A stretch of 37,768 nucleotides of DNA from Oculatellaceae cyanobacterium bins.114 (lineage in GTDB: Bacteria; Cyanobacteriota; Cyanobacteriia; Elainellales; Elainellaceae), in NCBI GenBank assembly GCA_033764315.1, contig JANRJA010000251.1, positions 1-37,768 on the forward strand. The letters run 5' to 3'. Made by a program: the position numbers and the translations under genes. The notes under the pieces were generated by a model, which was given only the letters and a program-made list of their open reading frames with translations, searched no databases and was not told the DNA's origin. Shown here one piece after another: positions 26,647-35,239 of the stretch (position 1 is its first letter; each line of letters starts with the position of its first letter).

Positions 26647-26988
26647 TCAGGAACTCTGGGTGGGTAGCAAAGGCTCAATCATAGATAGTAGCTGAGGAAT
26701 ATCATCCTGAATTACATCCCAAATTTCATCCACTTCGACGCGATCGTACTGATGAGTAAGGATGTCTCGCATTCCAGCAATTTCTCGCCACGGGACTTGT
26801 GGATGCTGATTGCGGAAGTCAGCAGATAATCGCTTGACGGCTTCTCCAATAACGACGATTTGATAGAGAATGGCAGACTGCTTCTCCAGATTTACTGCCA
26901 GTTCTGGCTTCTCTAAGCCTTGGGCGAATTCCAGGATAAGCTGGGCAGATCTGGCAATATCCAATAGTGAAGCGTTATCTCGCAACAT
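26647..26988 (-). CDS. hepT: HEPN (DUF86) ribonuclease toxin, HepT-like
   Basis: IGEAVK, PWREIAGM and Rx4HxY motif RDILTHQY. Confidence 0.92.
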   Translation of the reverse strand: MLRDNASLLDIARSAQLILEFAQGLEKPELAVNLEKQSAILYQIVVIGEAVKRLSADFRNQHPQVPWREIAGMRDILTHQYDRVEVDEIWDVIQDDIPQLLSMIEPLLPTQSS

Positions 26989-27292
26989 AAATGACCTGAG
27001 CCGTTCCCAAAATCTCGTTGCGTCGAATCCAGTTATGGCTCGTTTCGACAGCGTGCTTGCTGACCAAATCTACTTCGCGCCCCAACATATCCTCCAACTC
27101 GTACTTCATCTTTACTAAGGTCAATAACCCGCGTTTCGCATCTGAAGCAAAAGTAATTAGAACATCAATATCGCTGTCAGGGCGAAAATCGTCTCGGAGG
27201 ACAGAACCAAACAGAGCAAGCTCACTCACCTTCCAACGTTGGCAGAATGCAACGAGCTTGTCTTCAGGAAGTTGAATGTTGAGCGTGAGCAT
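26975..27292 (-). CDS. mntA: Minimal nucleotidyltransferase antitoxin, MntA-like
   Basis: GSx10DxD motif (FGSVLRDDFRPDSDID) and GREVDLV; overlaps the HEPN gene by 14 nt. Confidence 0.92.
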   Translation of the reverse strand: MLTLNIQLPEDKLVAFCQRWKVSELALFGSVLRDDFRPDSDIDVLITFASDAKRGLLTLVKMKYELEDMLGREVDLVSKHAVETSHNWIRRNEILGTAQVIYVAR

Positions 27293-27409: not shown

Positions 27410-30400
27410 ATGGTGCGAGACGAAGCCTATCAGGAAGCAGAACGACGGATTGAAGCAGCCCGCCGGGAGGGAGCTACAGAACTCGACCTCAGAAACCTAA
27501 AATTGACAGAGTTGCCTGAATCAATTAGTCAACTTAACAATCTGAAAAAACTTGATCTTGGTGGAGACTCTTGGAAAGATTCTAAAAACCAGCTGACGGA
27601 AGTGCCAGAGGCGATCGCATCCCTCACCCAGTTGCAAGAGCTTGATCTCTCCGGTAACAAATTGACAGAGTTATCAGAGGCGATCGCATCCCTCACCCAG
27701 TTGCAGTCGCTTGACCTCTCCAACAACCAATTGACGGAGTTGCCTGAGGTGATTACCTCTCTGACTCAGTTGCAATCACTTGATCTTGGAAAAAATCAGT
27801 TAGAAATCCTACCGAATTCCTTGACAAATCTGACGAAACTTACCGCCCTTCACCTCTGGAGAAATCCTCTTTCACTAGTCCCTAATATAATTTTTCACCT
27901 GAAAAGCTTGGTATCACTTCAACTAAATAGTATTGGACTGCATGAACTTTCATCAGAAATTGCACTGCTAGAGAATTTGGAATTTCTTCATCTATTCAAC
28001 AATGAACTAAGGAGGATACCACCAGAAATTGGTCAACTCAAGAAGTTGAAAGTGCTTGAAATTGGTGTTGAAATTGTAGGTGGCAATTTACTGAACAGTT
28101 TGCCGGAAGAAATTGGACTACTAAGCGAACTCGAATCACTAAGACTTGACAGAAATGAGCTGACTACACTTCCAAATTCACTTTCATATCTACATAAGCT
28201 GAAGACACTGAATCTTGCTAAGAATCCCCTTAATCCTGATGTTGCCGCTGCTTATAAACAAGGTATTGAAGCCGTCATGCAATACTTGCGGGCAAGATCA
28301 GCAGGAGAAGTGATGCTAAATGAAGCAAAGCTAATTTTGGTGGGCGAGGGTGAGGTAGGAAAAAGTTGTTTATTAGGGGCATTACGGAGAGATGAATGGG
28401 TTGATGGTCGTCCCACGACGCATGGAATTGAGATTAAACCTGTCATTGTTACTGCTCCTGACAGCGGAACGAAGATTACGCTGAATGGTTGGGATTTTGG
28501 GGGGCAGAGGGTTTACCGTCCAACCCATCAACTATTCTTTAGTTCATCAGCGGTTTATCTAGTAGTGTGGAAGCCACGGGAGGGGCCACAGCAGGGGTTT
28601 GTCAAAGAATGGATCACGCTGATCAAGCATCGAGAGCCCGATGCAAAAGTGCTGGTGGTGGCAACCCACGGTGGTCCCGGACAGCGACAACCGGATATCG
28701 ATCGACAGGAATTGATTGATCTGTTTGGCAACGATACCGTTGTTGATTTCTTTCACGTTGATAGTCTGCTGAGTACTGGGATTACCGAGTTGAGAGATGC
28801 GATTGCCAACACTGCCGCCAACTTACCCGGAATGGGTCGTCTTGTGCCTACTAAATGGCAACGCATTCGGGAGTTGTTGGAGGAGTCTGGCAAAACCTAT
28901 TTGCCTTACAACGAGATCATTGCCCTTTGTGAAGAACAAGGACTTGAAGGCTTCGCTGCCGAACTGTTTGTTCGTGTCTCTCACACCCTGGGATATTTGA
29001 TCCACTACCATTACGACCCCATCCTGCAAGATATTGTCATCCTCAAACCCGACTGGTTAGCCAAAGCCATCAGTTTTGTCCTGGATGATGAAACCACTCG
29101 TTGCCGTAACGGGTTGGTCGAGTTTGCCCACCTTAGCCAGTTGTGGAGCCATCCCCCCTTTGCAGGTGAAGAGGGTTATCCCAAAGCTCTCCATCCGGTA
29201 TTTCTGCGGTTGATGGAACGCTTCGATTTGTCTTACAAAGTTGTTCTTGATCCAGCGTCTAGAGAAGAAAGCACCACCAGCCTGATTGCTCAACTGGTGC
29301 CCGACAATCGCCCAGAGCAATTGCCCAATTGGGGCGAACAACCCGACGAGGGTGACAGACAACAGGTGCAAATCTGCCGGATTGTGGACGATCGCGGTCA
29401 GAGTGCCAATGCTGAAGGATTGTTCTATCAACTCATTGTGCGGCTCCACAAATACTCGCTAGGACGCAACAACTACGAAAACAGCATTCACTGGCAACGA
29501 GGGTTAATGCTCGACAACGACTACAACGGTCGCGCCTTGCTCGAACACATCGGCAATGATGTCAAAATCACCGTCCGAGCCGCCTATCCAGAAAGGTTTC
29601 TCGCTTATCTCACCGAAGAGGTGAAATGGCTGGTGGAGAGCTTTTGGGAAGGGTTGAACTGCAACATCATGGTGCCTTGTATTGCTCCCTGTGGCATGGA
29701 GACCCCCGGACATGGACTCTTTGAGGTACAAAAACTAATCGAAAGCAAAAAGAAAAATCGACCTGAATTTCCCTGCCCGATATCAGGTTGTGATGAGTGG
29801 CAAAACATTGACCAATTGCTAAATAATGCTCCTGCGGCACAGCCTACCGTCCAGGAAGTCTTAAGCGAGAAACTGACCGACGTACAGGAAACATTACAGG
29901 TCATTCGTAAAGAAATACGAGTTAAAGATCAGCGGGATCAACTACGATATCAAGACCTGAGCAAAAAGCAGCTTGCTACTATGAGCTTAGTTGATCAGCA
30001 ATTTGCTGATCTGATGCAGATGCTGACTGATGAAGCCAAAGATGGCCCACGTCTGTTTAGTTTCAAACCTGTTGATCCAAAATTCTTCGATCGCCCTAAA
30101 TGGATCAGCGAAAAGTTTCAACTCACCCTCTGGTGTGAACACTCGCGTAAACCTCTCCCGGCCCTCAATCCTCCGGGTAGCAAGCAGGGTGTTTACGTAT
30201 TAGAACTCAATCGTGAGTGGTTCACAAAAGCGGTTCCCTACTTCAAACTGCTGACTGGAACCTTGAGCCTAGTTTTACCTGTTGCCGCTTCAACAACTCA
30301 ATTCATGCTGGACGATGCGACCTACAAAGGCATTCAAGAGGAATTAGATCTGGGTCAAAAAAGCCTTGAATTTGGCATTAAAGGCAGTAATATGGCGATC

Positions 30401-30589
30401 GATTGGCAAACCAAACGGGACTCGCAGGAGTTTGAACAGGGTGAAGCCATTCGTGCTCAGGGTTCTATGCTACGAGAACTTCATGCCATGTTGAAGGAAA
30501 AAGACCCCAGCTTTGGTGGGTTGGTACAAGTGCAAAACAAACGCCGTGAGTTCCTCTGGGTTCATCCGCAGTTTGTCAATGAATACTAA
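27410..30589 (+). CDS. Roco protein: LRR-Roc GTPase-COR with Zn-ribbon-like, coiled-coil and uncharacterised C-terminal regions
   Basis: About 10 23-aa LRRs; P-loop GEGEVGKS, TTHGI, WDFGGQ, THQLFF; COR-type VILKPDWL. Confidence 0.93.
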   Translation: MVRDEAYQEAERRIEAARREGATELDLRNLKLTELPESISQLNNLKKLDLGGDSWKDSKNQLTEVPEAIASLTQLQELDLSGNKLTELSEAIASLTQLQSLDLSNNQLTELPEVITSLTQLQSLDLGKNQLEILPNSLTNLTKLTALHLWRNPLSLVPNIIFHLKSLVSLQLNSIGLHELSSEIALLENLEFLHLFNNELRRIPPEIGQLKKLKVLEIGVEIVGGNLLNSLPEEIGLLSELESLRLDRNELTTLPNSLSYLHKLKTLNLAKNPLNPDVAAAYKQGIEAVMQYLRARSAGEVMLNEAKLILVGEGEVGKSCLLGALRRDEWVDGRPTTHGIEIKPVIVTAPDSGTKITLNGWDFGGQRVYRPTHQLFFSSSAVYLVVWKPREGPQQGFVKEWITLIKHREPDAKVLVVATHGGPGQRQPDIDRQELIDLFGNDTVVDFFHVDSLLSTGITELRDAIANTAANLPGMGRLVPTKWQRIRELLEESGKTYLPYNEIIALCEEQGLEGFAAELFVRVSHTLGYLIHYHYDPILQDIVILKPDWLAKAISFVLDDETTRCRNGLVEFAHLSQLWSHPPFAGEEGYPKALHPVFLRLMERFDLSYKVVLDPASREESTTSLIAQLVPDNRPEQLPNWGEQPDEGDRQQVQICRIVDDRGQSANAEGLFYQLIVRLHKYSLGRNNYENSIHWQRGLMLDNDYNGRALLEHIGNDVKITVRAAYPERFLAYLTEEVKWLVESFWEGLNCNIMVPCIAPCGMETPGHGLFEVQKLIESKKKNRPEFPCPISGCDEWQNIDQLLNNAPAAQPTVQEVLSEKLTDVQETLQVIRKEIRVKDQRDQLRYQDLSKKQLATMSLVDQQFADLMQMLTDEAKDGPRLFSFKPVDPKFFDRPKWISEKFQLTLWCEHSRKPLPALNPPGSKQGVYVLELNREWFTKAVPYFKLLTGTLSLVLPVAASTTQFMLDDATYKGIQEELDLGQKSLEFGIKGSNMAIDWQTKRDSQEFEQGEAIRAQGSMLRELHAMLKEKDPSFGGLVQVQNKRREFLWVHPQFVNEY
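27593..27799 (+). repeat. Three tandem 69-bp LRR-coding repeats
   Basis: Units start at 27593, 27662 and 27731; units 1 and 2 share a 31-bp identical block containing HIP1 (27611, 27680). Confidence 0.9.
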
Positions 30590-30608
30590 AAATTAGGAGG
30601 GAAATTTC

Positions 30609-30983
30609 CTGAGTATTCATTCAGATGACCCCGCTATTGCCGCTCTCTACGAAGAAATTGGCAATCTCGTTATTCGTTTCCCACTATTACAATGCGAAGA
30701 ATGCGCCAACACTCTTAAACAATGGCTTAAACAACGTGGAATCCCTGGAAAACTCTGGCGGCTAACAACTCGCTATGATGGAGAAGACTTCATTCTTAGC
30801 GATCGCCTTGAACAGAAGGGTTGCTTTGAAACAATAACTGAAAACGGCGTCCATTACGGGGTTGAGGTATATGGAAAGATATTTGACAACCTTTCCAAAC
30901 AGGGACTGTTTCCAGACGATTGGGTTAAGGATTTTACATCTCTATCTAATGAATTTGATGTCGAAGTGATTGAAGAACTCTAG
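30609..30983 (+). CDS. Papain-fold toxin (Tox-PL-2-like), 124 aa, CTG start; absent from the ORF track
   Basis: AGGAGG at 30595-30600, 8 nt before CTG. Open frame (M)SIHSDDPAIAALYEEIGNLVIRFPLLQCEECANTLKQWLKQRGIPGKLWRL...FILSDRL...ITENGVHYGVEVYGKIFDNLSKQGLFPDDWVKDF...EEL*, with a Cys/His/Asp triad pattern. Confidence 0.85.
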   Translation: MSIHSDDPAIAALYEEIGNLVIRFPLLQCEECANTLKQWLKQRGIPGKLWRLTTRYDGEDFILSDRLEQKGCFETITENGVHYGVEVYGKIFDNLSKQGLFPDDWVKDFTSLSNEFDVEVIEEL

Positions 30984-31010
30984 AAGTTTGATGAGTGGAG
31001 CTAGTTAAGT

Positions 31011-31379
31011 ATGGGCACATTATTTGACTTACTTGAAAAAATTAAAGCTAAGCCAGGGCTTTATATAGGAACTGCCTCTATCACACATTTACGAATGTTC
31101 ATCGTTGGGTATCAATTTGCTCGCTCAGAAATGAGAATTGCCAATACCGATGCTGAAAGTGATTTTTATAAAAACTTTCAACCGTGGTTACAAAATCGCC
31201 TATCGATTCGCACTGTAAATGCTTGGGATAAAATTATTTTGCTGACGTGCATCGATGAAAAAGCTGCATTTGATTACTTCTTCCAGCTTTTAGAAGATTT
31301 TCTCCAGCGTGATAAGAGTCAGGATATTGACCCCATCTTGGTGGAATCATCCTCTAAAAACGTTGAACAAGCTGCATAG
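31011..31379 (+). CDS. Hypothetical protein, putative immunity/antitoxin partner of the papain-fold toxin
   Basis: 27 nt after the toxin gene; GGAG RBS; KPGLYIG, FQPWLQ and AFDYFFQLLEDF segments. Function inferred from position. Confidence 0.75.
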   Translation: MGTLFDLLEKIKAKPGLYIGTASITHLRMFIVGYQFARSEMRIANTDAESDFYKNFQPWLQNRLSIRTVNAWDKIILLTCIDEKAAFDYFFQLLEDFLQRDKSQDIDPILVESSSKNVEQAA

Positions 31380-31455
31380 AAGGAACGTTAGAATTAAATG
31401 AATCTATTCACATATCGCCCCCCGATCGCACCCTTTTTTTTCAAGGAGTCGGGCT

Positions 31456-31809
31456 ATGCGTCAATCAAAAGTTCAATCAATTATTCAACGCCGTTTGTTA
31501 GGAATCGCGATCGCCACTTCGCTAACTCCCACCATCCTTGTGTCACCCAGTTTTGCCTTGTCGATTTCGCCTCAAGCCTTGTCTCAAATCAACGCTGCAC
31601 TCAACTATCCCAATGCCTCACAGCGATTTTTTGAAGAGGGACAGGAGCGGTTTGAGGACGAAGTTCAGCAACTCCAGGAACCTGCTACCAATGCAACTGA
31701 GCCACTGCAAGTGGACGAAGACTTACCAGACACACTAAACCAGCAACGCTTGCAACTTGAACAACCTGATGAGCGATCGCACGACAGAAGAGAGTCAGGA
31801 AGTCTATGA
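31456..31809 (+). CDS. Hypothetical exported protein
   Basis: AAGGAG RBS, signal-peptide-like N-terminus (SFA|L), SQRFFEEGQERFEDE segment. Confidence 0.7.
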   Translation: MRQSKVQSIIQRRLLGIAIATSLTPTILVSPSFALSISPQALSQINAALNYPNASQRFFEEGQERFEDEVQQLQEPATNATEPLQVDEDLPDTLNQQRLQLEQPDERSHDRRESGSL

Positions 31810-31922
31810 ATCTTGAATTATGAGTTTTGAATTTTGAGTTGAGGTATCAATTTAGAATTCAAAACTCATACCTCCAAACTCATACCTCCAAACTCATAAC
31901 TTAACTCCAAACTCATAACTCC
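31805..31922. repeat. Short tandem (7/14-nt) repeat tract with inverted arms between convergent genes
   Basis: TATGAGTTTTGAATT (31819-31833) / AATTCAAAACTCATA (31856-31870); repeated AAACTCATA(C/A)CT. Confidence 0.8.
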
Positions 31923-31927
31923 CTCTC

Positions 31928-32746
31928 CTACACTGCCACCTGCAACATCGGAGCACGCTTGGCTAGATCAAACTTGTAGCCATTTGGCAGAATGTGTAGC
32001 TTTGCCCCACAAATGGCCAGGTTCTCATCCCGCAGCAACTCATCCACGTTGGTATGGGTGATATTGGCTACATCAATCACCGTCACCGCACCCCTGCCAA
32101 TCACCTCGACCTCTGCTCCATTAATGGCGATCGCGGTGTCTTCATCAATGCCAAACCCCAAAATAGCGGGCTGTTGCGCTAAAGCTGAGATCAAACGCCC
32201 CAATCGTCCACGTTGAGCAAAATGCTGATCAATCACGACTCCTGGCAAAAACCCCATCCCTGGCCCCATTGTCACCACTTCCATCCGGGGATTCGTTTCT
32301 GACTCCCCTTCGACAATCATCACATCTGGCATCATGGCCGCACCTGCACTGGTTCCAGCAATCACAATTCCCTGCTGAAACCGCTCGTGCAATTTGGCAT
32401 CCAGTTCAGTGTCTTTGAGATATTCGGTGATGCGGGCTTGATTGCCACCTGTAAAAAACACGCCTGTTGCCTGATCAATCTTGGCTAACGCATCAGTATT
32501 GCTGGCATCTTCGCGTCGTTCGGTGTCAACTACTTTGACATTCTCTACGCCCAATCGCTCAAATGCTCGAATGTAATCAGAGCCGACTTCCCCTGGCAAC
32601 TCAGTCGCTACAGTCATCACGACAACTTGGGCTTGCAATCCACCTGCCCGTCGCACAAACTCTCGCAGAACCTTGCATTCCCCTTCTTTTTCCTCTGCTC
32701 CACCGATAATTACTAACTGACCATGAGACTCATCTAAAGCTGCCAT
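31928..32746 (-). CDS. cphB2: Cyanophycinase (CphB2-type by context)
   Basis: IIGGAE, TGGNQ, GTSAG, DQHFAQRGR, GIDEDT; divergent from cphA2. Confidence 0.92.
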   Translation of the reverse strand: MAALDESHGQLVIIGGAEEKEGECKVLREFVRRAGGLQAQVVVMTVATELPGEVGSDYIRAFERLGVENVKVVDTERREDASNTDALAKIDQATGVFFTGGNQARITEYLKDTELDAKLHERFQQGIVIAGTSAGAAMMPDVMIVEGESETNPRMEVVTMGPGMGFLPGVVIDQHFAQRGRLGRLISALAQQPAILGFGIDEDTAIAINGAEVEVIGRGAVTVIDVANITHTNVDELLRDENLAICGAKLHILPNGYKFDLAKRAPMLQVAV

Positions 32747-33328: not shown

Positions 33329-35239
33329 ATGGTGCTAGAACAAAGCTCCAATACATACAGCGTGAATGCCCGCAAAACGGATGCATTTGACGTTTTCAAT
33401 TGCAATACGTACATCGGTTCAAATCCATATTTAGATGCAGCTGCATTCGTGTTTGATGTTGCACTAACTGGATACCGTGAACCGCTGCCAATTGAAGAAT
33501 ATGTGGCTGTTATTGGCGATCGCTATCCTCAGTTGCGTGATCACGTCTTTGATTCTTATGCTCATTTGTTTGCTCAAACAGCCCTCGAAGTCAGCAAATT
33601 AGAGATGGACTTGCACTTTCACCGCTATAGCTTGCATGCTTTAGAAGGTCGCATCCGCATTGCCGTACAAGCGTTGCACGGGCGCACTAGTCGGGCTGTG
33701 GTCTATTGTGTGTGGGATTGGTTTGAGGCAATTACAAAGGATCAATCCTTTAACCTAGATGATCAGATCGAAGTCATGCAGGGCATGTTTCGGCAATCGG
33801 TCTATGGCGGCCCAACAGTGTATGCATTGCTGAGAACTGCTTATGAAAAGGGCATTCCCACCTTTTATTTGTGGGATGAAGGATTAATGCAATATGGCTA
33901 TGGCAAAAAACAAGTCCGGGGAGTTGCCACAACATTTGACGGTGATAGTCATCTAGATTCTGATTTCACCACCCGCAAGGATGACTGCAAAGCCTTTCTT
34001 AGTACATTAGGGTTTCCGGTTCCCAGAGGAGAGATTGTCATCTCCGTAGATGAGGCCACTTCCGCGGCGCGACGAGTTGGCTATCCGGTTGCAATTAAGC
34101 CTGTGGTAGGGCACAAAGGACATGGAGTAACCACTGATATTCAAGATGCCGATAGCATTGAGATTGCGTTTGAACGGGCAGTCGAGGCGATCGCAGAGAG
34201 TGACCCCATTCGCGTCATTGTCGAGCAAAGCGTTACTGGGTCGGACTACCGCTTGCTCTGTGTTAACGGTCGCTTTGTCGCCGCAACTGAGCGTCGTCCA
34301 GCGTTTGTGGTCGGAGATGGAGACTCGACCATTGAGGAGTTGATTAACCAAGAAAACCGTCAGCTTGCTCGGACTGACACCCCCACATCTCCTTTGGGTA
34401 AGATCCGCATTGATGAGGCAATGGAGAACTACCTGGATGAGCAAGGATTATCATTGGATAGCATCATAGAGAGCGATCGCACGGTTTATCTCCGCAAGGT
34501 TGCCAACCTCTCCGCCGGGGGATTGAGCATTGATGCCACTGCAACGGTTCACCCTGACAACATCATCCTGGCACAAGATATTGCTCAACACTTTCGCCTG
34601 ACCTGTCTGGGCATTGACGTGATTGCCCGTGATTTAACTCGCTCTTGGAAAGACGGCAACTTCGGTATTTTAGAAATCAATGCGGCTCCGGGCATCTATA
34701 TGCACTTAAAGCCTGCTCAAGGAGACAGCATTGATGTGCCTTCTGCCATTCTCGGCACGTTTTTTGAATCGGGAGCAGCGGCACGCATTCCCATCATTAC
34801 CTTTAACCGGGTTTCAGTTTCAGAACTGCAAGAAACCATCGACCATATCTTGTTTCAACACCCCACTTGGACAATTGGGGCAGTGTGTCGAGATGGCGTG
34901 TTTGTTAACCGCGCCGAAAAAGTGTTACATCCTGACTACAATATCAATGTGCAAAATCTCGTCCGCAACCCCAAACTGGATGTCCTAATTGTGGAATATG
35001 CAGACAGCCTCTTAGAACGAGACGGCATGTTTTACTACGGCAGCGATATTGTCGTACTTAACAATCCTACAGAGACTGAGTTGACCCTTACCCGCGATGT
35101 CTTTGAACATTCCACCATTGTTGTCAAAGAAGGAGACACGGTCTCTATTCGTCGTCAGGGCTTAATGGAGCAATATCGCTTGGGTGGCTCAGAACCCTTT
35201 CAACGGGTTTATCTCAAAGAGCTTGCCACAATTCTATAA
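33329..35239 (+). CDS. cphA2: Cyanophycin synthetase 2 (beta-Asp-Arg dipeptide polymerase)
   Basis: 636 aa; YGGPT, ATP-grasp motifs (KPVVGHKGHGV, DYRLL, ANLSAGG, EINAAPG), truncated Mur-like C-terminus starting RIPII. Confidence 0.92.
   Translation: MVLEQSSNTYSVNARKTDAFDVFNCNTYIGSNPYLDAAAFVFDVALTGYREPLPIEEYVAVIGDRYPQLRDHVFDSYAHLFAQTALEVSKLEMDLHFHRYSLHALEGRIRIAVQALHGRTSRAVVYCVWDWFEAITKDQSFNLDDQIEVMQGMFRQSVYGGPTVYALLRTAYEKGIPTFYLWDEGLMQYGYGKKQVRGVATTFDGDSHLDSDFTTRKDDCKAFLSTLGFPVPRGEIVISVDEATSAARRVGYPVAIKPVVGHKGHGVTTDIQDADSIEIAFERAVEAIAESDPIRVIVEQSVTGSDYRLLCVNGRFVAATERRPAFVVGDGDSTIEELINQENRQLARTDTPTSPLGKIRIDEAMENYLDEQGLSLDSIIESDRTVYLRKVANLSAGGLSIDATATVHPDNIILAQDIAQHFRLTCLGIDVIARDLTRSWKDGNFGILEINAAPGIYMHLKPAQGDSIDVPSAILGTFFESGAAARIPIITFNRVSVSELQETIDHILFQHPTWTIGAVCRDGVFVNRAEKVLHPDYNINVQNLVRNPKLDVLIVEYADSLLERDGMFYYGSDIVVLNNPTETELTLTRDVFEHSTIVVKEGDTVSIRRQGLMEQYRLGGSEPFQRVYLKELATIL

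Follow-up and report, generated by a model that had tools for sequence, protein, structure and literature searches.

A stand-alone Tox-PL-2 gene with an invariant CTG at its probable start, and its helical partner: a candidate toxin-immunity pair of cyanobacteria

In a cyanobacterial genome assembly we identify two adjacent small genes on the same strand that together probably constitute a mobile pair of toxin and immunity genes, the amount of toxin being limited by a weak initiation codon. They occupy positions 30595-31379 of a 37,768-nucleotide (nt) stretch of DNA that was analysed throughout and is termed here the window (Oculatellaceae cyanobacterium bins.114, assembly GCA_033764315.1, contig JANRJA010000251.1, positions 1 to 37,768). 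The first gene encodes a stand-alone protein of the Tox-PL-2 family, and comparison with related sequences indicates that it most probably begins at a CTG codon placed behind a strong Shine-Dalgarno sequence; the second encodes a protein proposed to be an immunity protein. For brevity we term their products the toxin and the partner, respectively. The gene families themselves are already known from comparative genomics. Newly described here are the stand-alone form, having its own promoter and its own Shine-Dalgarno sequence, as the cyanobacterial norm; the invariant CTG start, together with a possible clade initiating at AUU; an asymmetry of start codons between toxin and immunity genes; decay that is specific to the toxin gene; and a partial association with injection systems. 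Conserved CUG starts are very rare in bacteria and are skipped by standard gene callers. Our literature search for Tox-PL-2 and Imm73 retrieved the family in one comparative-genomics paper, one classification paper and two environmental surveys only, the other returns being unrelated, and a search for CTG or CUG starts in conjunction with cyanobacteria or toxins retrieved nothing on this system.

The locus is summarized in Table 1. Read from stop to stop, the toxin frame (30597-30983, + strand) comprises 128 codons, with no ATG, GTG or TTG among them, and terminates with TAG at 30981-30983; the partner gene begins 27 nt past this stop. An earlier note on this DNA had described a frame without ATG at 30609-30983, bounded by an in-frame TAG and preceded by AGGAGG 8 nt before a CTG, and all of these features were confirmed in the sequence. 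The preceding gene, encoding an LRR-Roc-COR (Roco) protein, ends with TAA at 30587-30589 in a different frame, 19 nt before the CTG; a frameshift fusion of the toxin frame to the Roco gene was considered and is ruled out by this TAA together with the TAG at 30594-30596. A default listing of open reading frames (ORFs) of the window omits the toxin frame. The protein database contains the partner protein of the window (P0121) but no entry for its toxin, the best match showing 82-89% identity, and from the presence of the one and absence of the other we conclude that gene calling on the assembly skipped the toxin gene. Elsewhere, toxin entries of 108 and 99 amino acids (aa) represent forms truncated by annotation pipelines.

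Table 1. Features of the two-gene module and its immediate surroundings, in window coordinates.
Feature	Position	Strand	Remarks
LRR-Roc-COR (Roco) gene	27410..30589	+	context only; Pfam LRR, Roc, COR-A, COR-B
In-frame TAG closing the toxin frame on its 5' side	30594..30596	+	overlaps first bases of Shine-Dalgarno sequence
Toxin Shine-Dalgarno sequence, AGGAGG	30595..30600	+	8 nt before CTG; same spacing kept in orthologues
Proposed CTG (CUG) initiation codon of toxin gene	30609..30611	+	invariant among orthologues
Toxin gene, stand-alone Tox-PL-2, 124 aa	30609..30983 (including stop)	+	PF15643 match
Candidate catalytic residues	C29, 30693-30695; C32, 30702-30704; H82, 30852-30854; D93-N94, 30885-30890
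Partner Shine-Dalgarno core, GGAG	30997..31000	+	10 nt before partner ATG
Partner gene, 122 aa, ATG start	31011..31379	+	proposed immunity protein (Imm73-like); downstream position, all-helical model
GyrB-like motif of partner	31011-31110		partner residues 4-31; noted together with L051:820-1119

To establish the position of the start, 47 related loci (designated by L numbers) were fetched from reference genomes and their 5' ends were read. The comparison of start codons comprised 31 close relatives in which the N-terminal region had been picked up, the window included, to which L026 and L031 were added. The codon aligned with the CTG of the window is CTG in all 31 and in both additional loci (33/33), and none of the close orthologues has ATG at this position, a circumstance that had been singled out beforehand for checking. 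By this comparison of sequences, the unanimity indicates that the CTG is a conserved feature and not a lesion or inactivating mutation. AGGAGG or a close variant of it lies 8 nt before the CTG in all orthologues except L024, and in most is extended to AGGAGGTG. Codon usage within the gene provides a measure of how unusual this invariance is. Among 25 sequences used for codon counts, CTG accounts for 17 of the 196 codons (8.7%) at eight conserved internal leucine columns, each of which contains two to five different leucine codons, and only two of 42 columns invariant in amino acid are also invariant in codon, both specifying residues with two codons. An RNAalifold analysis of 16 representatives revealed no conserved structure (-0.09 kcal/mol) and no compensatory pair; in that alignment CTGA is the sole fully invariant run. 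Two NCBI records, P0019 (corresponding to L005) and P0045 (L007), begin at this very codon. The earlier note had left the choice between CTG and an ATT at 30615: the former is borne out by the orthologues, while the latter (30615-30617) lies 14 nt from the Shine-Dalgarno sequence, is not conserved in orthologues and was rejected. The toxin gene thus most probably initiates at the CTG.

That such genes are translated is argued by a subset of loci that resemble the window in having no canonical start ahead of the domain while retaining a full-length frame. These comprise eight of the 31 loci and span several genera: the window, L001 (Leptolyngbya), L005 and L007 (Symploca), L006 (Stigonema), L012 (Calothrix), L017 (Nostocales) and L028 (Jaaginema). 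Over the 28 pairs formed by these eight toxins, the median proportion of nonsynonymous differences (pN) is 0.11 and that of synonymous differences (pS) 0.61, near saturation, with dN/dS ratios of 0.04-0.2 where computable. Purifying selection of this degree, acting on frames that have remained full length, leads us to conclude that these start-less toxin genes are translated.

A scan of positions 30200-31900 for promoters and terminators found nothing upstream of the toxin gene. In the orthologues, a box resembling TACAAT or TAAAAT is conserved 20-25 nt ahead of the Shine-Dalgarno sequence. Comparison of window positions 30569-30600 with L009:3964-4003 showed the leader to be about 17 nt shorter in the window, where the box abuts the Shine-Dalgarno sequence; given this shortening, transcription of the toxin gene in this genome may come from read-through of the Roco gene. 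A query of public sequencing runs listed none that contains the locus. No Roco homologue occurs upstream of the module in the 47 other loci, and the Roco gene is not part of the conserved unit.

The toxin matches the Pfam Tox-PL-2 profile (PF15643) at 109.6 bits (cut-off 25; E 1e-31), across profile positions 3-103 of 103, a score that places the frame beyond chance; the match was recovered again in a profile search of the whole genome. The assignment to a papain-like Tox-PL-2 domain, which the earlier note had proposed, is thereby substantiated, as it is by the structural neighbours described below. The signature given for the family, in which cyanobacteria are included among the hosts, consists of C, NxxH and DN (Zhang et al. 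2012, PMC3482391). In the window toxin it is represented by C29 and C32, N79-G-V-H82 and D93-N94, located within the motifs QCEEC, NGVHYGV and IFDN that had been read from the translation beforehand. An alignment of 41 cyanobacterial sequences has C29, H82, D93 and N94 throughout, and C32 and N79 in 39 of the sequences; the window copy retains every conserved residue. The earlier note had proposed a C29A mutant; on this alignment both C29 and C32 are regarded as candidate nucleophiles.

An AlphaFold model of the toxin built with 29 sequences has a mean predicted local distance difference test (pLDDT) score of 91.6; C29 opens a predicted helix of residues 29-42, and only about seven residues precede the fold. 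When compared by VIA-align with 48,161 solved chains, the model gave three protein-glutaminase entries as its top matches (Z 8.5, 8.2 and 8.0), followed by NTAQ1 (6.7), LapG (6.2), the C3 domain of Pasteurella toxin (5.5), vasohibin (5.4) and SseI (5.1). The best match aligned 111 residues with a root-mean-square deviation of 3.8, its Z near 8 being rated middling by the tool. Judged by name, the first 11 matches are mostly papain/transglutaminase-like cysteine enzymes, several of them glutamine deamidases, and Foldseek likewise returned a protein-glutaminase as best match (probability 0.94). The toxin thus shares its fold and the order of Cys, His and Asp with the deamidases protein-glutaminase (2zk9, 8z3i), NTAQ1 (3c9q), Pasteurella multocida toxin C3 (2ebf) and SseI (4g29), but differs from them in sequence, with identities of only 9-17% and the middling Z values noted. 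In a published classification, the section on cluster III families takes up Tox-PL-2 along with other transglutaminase families for which a role as bacterial toxins has been described (Ozhelvaci and Steczkiewicz 2023, PMC10318531). The chemistry of the toxin is most likely that of a deamidase, transglutaminase or peptidase acting on a protein target.

The partner accompanies the toxin with great regularity. It lies directly 3' of the toxin gene in 46 of the 47 loci, the exception (L030) ending at a contig edge, and the pairing persists even where toxin identity falls to 41-56%. We further interrogated an even sample of the phylum comprising 401 genomes from 156 genera. PF15643 occurs in 50 of these genomes and 30 of the genera, with up to six matches per genome, and 96 places were listed, most of them open frames of about 120-146 aa. 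From these, 40 places were fetched, hand-chosen among higher-scoring entries without internal stops, and all 40 have a gene of the partner family directly downstream on the same strand (E <= 2.7e-31). The co-occurrence of the two genes, proposed as a check on the pair, therefore holds in both collections. The genome of the window itself contains a second, divergent pair (L049:1067-1812, contig C47), whose toxin gene has a GTG start and no obvious Shine-Dalgarno sequence.

The downstream gene had been described as an unknown of 122 aa, 27 nt past the toxin gene; its size and spacing were correct, and it proved to belong to a large Imm73-like family and not to be an orphan. A profile search with the partner collected 2,843 cluster representatives at E <= 0.001. 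Among the best 150 of these, many are 190-270 aa long with two matched stretches, representing tandem duplicates; one member of the whole set is a fusion of Tox-PL-2 with the partner. The model of the partner, a confident one (pLDDT 86), consists of six helices, for which Foldseek and VIA-align found no convincing fold match among solved structures (best Z 4.7). Pfam and NCBIfam gave no match for the partner or 25 relatives, the ESM Atlas gave unnamed clusters only for the partner, NCBIfam gave no match for the toxin, and PADLOC models matched neither the toxin, the partner nor the Roco protein. Imm73 has been described as an all-alpha family paired with Tox-PL-2, including in cyanobacteria, and sometimes present as two or three tandem copies in one polypeptide (PMC3482391). 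The partner family, being all-alpha, encoded beside Tox-PL-2 and including tandem copies, fits this published description; the comparison is with the description and not with a reference profile. A prediction of the toxin-partner complex scored 0.12 against a mark of 0.32, which speaks neither for nor against binding.

The toxin had been noted to stand alone without a secretion domain, and the wider comparison agrees. It contains no trafficking domain and no long N-terminal extension, its frame is closed four codons before the start, and it does not form the C-terminal part of a secreted polymorphic toxin with several domains. Among 51 candidates for longer relatives no scored match was obtained, a result that the tool itself notes as weak evidence. 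These features also bear on whether the first gene might be a silent orphan cassette, in which an untranslated toxin domain serves as recombination raw material for a full-length polymorphic toxin and only the immunity gene is expressed. Stand-alone cassettes of this kind have been described as part of polymorphic toxin systems and provide a precedent (PMC3482391); the gene has no canonical start codon; and a toxin-type protein with eCIS_core, a domain of the injection systems considered below, adjoins the module in L012, L020, L024 and L026. We nevertheless regard such a cassette as very improbable. Opening as it does four codons before the CTG, the frame leaves no shared 5' homology arm; longer relatives were not found and most of the listed places have the short length given above; and where a silent cassette would be devoid of translation signals, this gene has a conserved Shine-Dalgarno sequence and CTG, and its protein is under strong selection.

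The two genes differ conspicuously in their persistence. Toxin genes are disrupted in 16 of 46 evaluable loci, by five nonsense mutations (L010, L011, L013, L026, L042), two frameshifts (L031, L035) and nine deletions, most of which remove the region of the catalytic cysteine (L029, L032, L033, L037, L038, L040, L045, L046, L047). The partner is disrupted in one of 45 loci (L046), with L005 running off its contig, and no locus among those examined combines an intact toxin with a lost partner. We also observed independent nonsense mutations at invariant or conserved tryptophan codons of the toxin, at codon 105 in L010 and L011 and at codon 39 in L026, the partner being intact.

A corresponding asymmetry is evident in translation signals. 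In all of 46 loci the partner gene opens with ATG, and in 22 resolved orthologous intergenic regions, with spacers of 23-31 nt, the sequence (A/G)TGGAG lies mostly 8-11 nt before that ATG, the core deviating in L004, L015 and L028. In the 40 places of the phylum sample, the nearest canonical start of the partner is ATG in 38 and GTG in two, one of the latter having an ATG one codon further up, and a Shine-Dalgarno core precedes it in 32. For the toxin the nearest canonical start is ATG in 20, GTG in nine (four of which belong to the CTG clade), TTG in eight and absent in three, and in none of the 20 ATG cases is there a recognisable Shine-Dalgarno core. These counts are descriptive, the sequences being related, and do not constitute a statistical test; they nonetheless lend support to the proposal, also made in the earlier note, that a weak start keeps the toxin below its antitoxin (nearest start ATG in 20/40 toxins versus 38/40 partners). 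The three toxins without ATG, GTG or TTG ahead of the domain (L063, L070, L075) have instead GGAG, 8 nt and then ATT, and the ATT is likewise conserved in L052, L072 and L078. From these sequences, a second clade of Tox-PL-2 genes may initiate at AUU.

In the interpretation that we consider probable, the first gene would produce a 124-aa Tox-PL-2 enzyme, toxic to the cell, that has a Cys-His-Asp set within a papain/transglutaminase-like fold. Translation of this enzyme would begin at the CUG, 8 nt past a strong Shine-Dalgarno sequence, and because CUG is a poor initiator little toxin would be made; for E. coli, initiation at CUG has been reported at 1-2% of that at AUG (bioRxiv 10.1101/063800). 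The second gene, with its AUG and its own Shine-Dalgarno sequence, would supply the all-helical, Imm73-like immunity protein in excess, which would bind and block the toxin and so neutralise it within the producing cell. The flanks of the module vary in nearly every locus and include IS200 transposases, PIN, TumE, Uma2, restriction-modification or housekeeping genes, a diversity that suits a mobile, self-contained pair acting in its own cell.

Several observations weigh against this interpretation. With regard to the start, the codon three positions upstream of the CTG is GTG in 20 of the 31 close orthologues (and ATG and TTG in one each), and this GTG, the start in most annotations (as 127-aa forms), could be used, perhaps together with the CTG. 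In an extension of this argument, the GTG would be the true start, the window copy a decaying pseudogene that has lost it, and the CTG kept for some other reason. We hold this to be improbable. The upstream GTG has zero spacing from the Shine-Dalgarno sequence, which it overlaps, and is probably better read as the 3' extension of that sequence; the eight loci of different genera that lack it keep full frames, catalytic residues and low dN/dS in the face of saturated synonymous sites; the CTG is invariant whereas no conserved internal leucine column is, and no RNA structure accounts for it; and the window toxin has lost none of its conserved residues. The invariance counts are themselves weakened by kinship, which overstates their independence: of the 25 sequences behind the codon counts, only 16 are less than 93% identical in nucleotides to each other. 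A search for the 3' end of 16S rRNA in the assembly (90.7% complete) did not find it; rRNA is often unassembled in such assemblies, and the complementarity of the toxin Shine-Dalgarno sequence to it is presumed here. As to the partner, a search of it and 25 relatives against Pfam detected no DNA-binding domain, unlike most type II antitoxins, although a divergent DNA-binding fold may be present.

For components of a conflict system, both proteins also show unusually high conservation, with identities of 65-92% across orders. This conservation, with the strong purifying selection and the presence of non-toxic enzymes (protein-glutaminase, NTAQ1) among the nearest structures, is what might be expected if the first gene encoded not a toxin but an enzyme conserved for an ordinary cellular function, such as a protein deamidase, the partner being its regulatory or chaperone subunit. 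Such a role is hard to reconcile with the patchy distribution in the phylum sample, with the multiple copies per genome, with variable surroundings rich in mobile and defence-type genes, and with the frequent loss of the first gene alone, and we consider it highly unlikely.

The remaining contrary evidence concerns the site of action. In the founding paper of the family, Tox-PL-2 figures as a domain found in polymorphic toxins that are secreted (PMC3482391), and in six of 46 loci (L008, L012, L020, L024, L026, L045) the module is located at a distance of at most two genes from contractile-injection genes (eCIS_core, CIS_tube, CIS_spike_tip, sheath, Pvc16). Three of these six modules come immediately after an eCIS_core protein, and another immediately precedes one; that of L024 directly follows an eCIS_core-Ntox4 protein. 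Such clusters make up a tiny share of a genome, and the proximity is far above chance; it raises the possibility that the toxin is exported in at least some lineages. One could accordingly imagine that an extracellular contractile injection system (eCIS), or another export route, has the toxin as its payload or as an accessory, the partner shielding sister cells. Immunity genes retained beside broken toxins also fit that model, and the window's genome does have an eCIS_core gene. Its sole eCIS_core match, however, sits on another contig, and no contractile-injection gene was found among the 31 window ORFs scanned, so that the window toxin has no context of an eCIS cargo; 40 of 46 loci have no injection-gene neighbour. 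The toxin moreover has neither a trafficking domain nor more than a few residues before its fold, and a conserved weak start would be odd for a payload to be loaded in quantity. We therefore regard export as the less likely arrangement, while according it more weight than the other alternatives, and favour a pair that acts within the cell producing it.

A possible indication of the target of the toxin comes from the partner. The family has an invariant N-terminal motif, which reads LLEKIKAKPGLYIGTASITHLRMFI in the window and is a helix-loop-helix similar to the N-terminal end of DNA gyrase B (GyrB); it is even clearer in diverse family members. Profile matches of the motif to the PDB are weak (E 0.2-1.6), and all 11 of them are GyrB or ParE. 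Foldseek gave local matches of the partner to GyrB ATPase domains, with about 30% identity over some 40 residues (E about 3), and alignment by hhalign of the partner family with the GyrB of the window's own genome reached 68% probability over 25 columns. The resemblance may reflect convergence; we take it as a lead for the target. A bolder composite can be imagined, wherein the ratio of toxin to immunity protein is set by the initiation codon, a device arisen more than once (in the CUG and AUU clades), and the immunity protein mimics the target of a deamidase or peptidase that attacks the N-terminal region of GyrB. We consider this composite improbable.

Comparison with known systems places the module between several precedents. 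HigBA, MqsRA and HicAB are type II pairs in which the toxin gene comes first, the toxins being RNases and the antitoxins having DNA-binding domains. The present pair resembles them in layout, with two small, adjacent, co-oriented genes, toxin first, and in being mobile, multi-copy and patchily distributed, the toxin decaying more readily than the antidote; it differs in the fold of its toxin and in the absence of a detectable DNA-binding domain from its partner. The infC gene has a conserved AUU start through which IF3 exerts autoregulation. Common to both is a weak near-cognate start that is conserved across species and apparently sets a low level of translation, but here the codon is CUG and not AUU, the Shine-Dalgarno sequence is very strong, the gene encodes a toxin and no feedback is known. 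With the Tox-PL-2/Imm73 cassettes, as they are described (PMC3482391), the module shares a PF15643 toxin, an immunity gene directly downstream, a cyanobacterial host and an all-helical partner with tandem copies in its family; unlike those, the window toxin stands alone, free of secretion, RHS and processing domains, its gene has a Shine-Dalgarno sequence of its own together with the conserved CTG, and it belongs to a multi-copy, highly conserved group.

The module provides a comparative case of a near-cognate start, placed behind a strong Shine-Dalgarno sequence, that selection appears to maintain so as to hold a toxin below its antidote; the sister clade seems to achieve the same with AUU. 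Tox-PL-2 and its partner make up a small system of two genes that lends itself readily to study, and the family occurs in about one in eight of the sampled cyanobacterial genomes. Its recognition would benefit the annotation pipelines by which these toxin genes are currently truncated or dropped.

The neighbourhood of the module in the window includes further genes of interest. To its left are a HepT/MNT pair and then the Roco gene. The former, a HepT-like ribonuclease with a nucleotidyltransferase (MNT), is a toxin-antitoxin pair located at 26647-27292 (- strand), just upstream of the Roco gene, and its nucleotidyltransferase matches the PADLOC candidate PDC-S09. The Roco protein comprises 1,059 aa, of which the C-terminal 250 or so have no Pfam match. 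Just after the partner, an ORF at 31456-31809 (+ strand) encodes 117 aa with a signal-peptide-like N-terminus and no Pfam match. Further downstream are a cyanophycinase (Peptidase_S51; 31928-32746, - strand) and an adjoining ATP-grasp, cyanophycin-synthetase-like protein of 636 aa (33329-35239, + strand), which we take to resemble the truncated cyanophycin synthetase CphA2.

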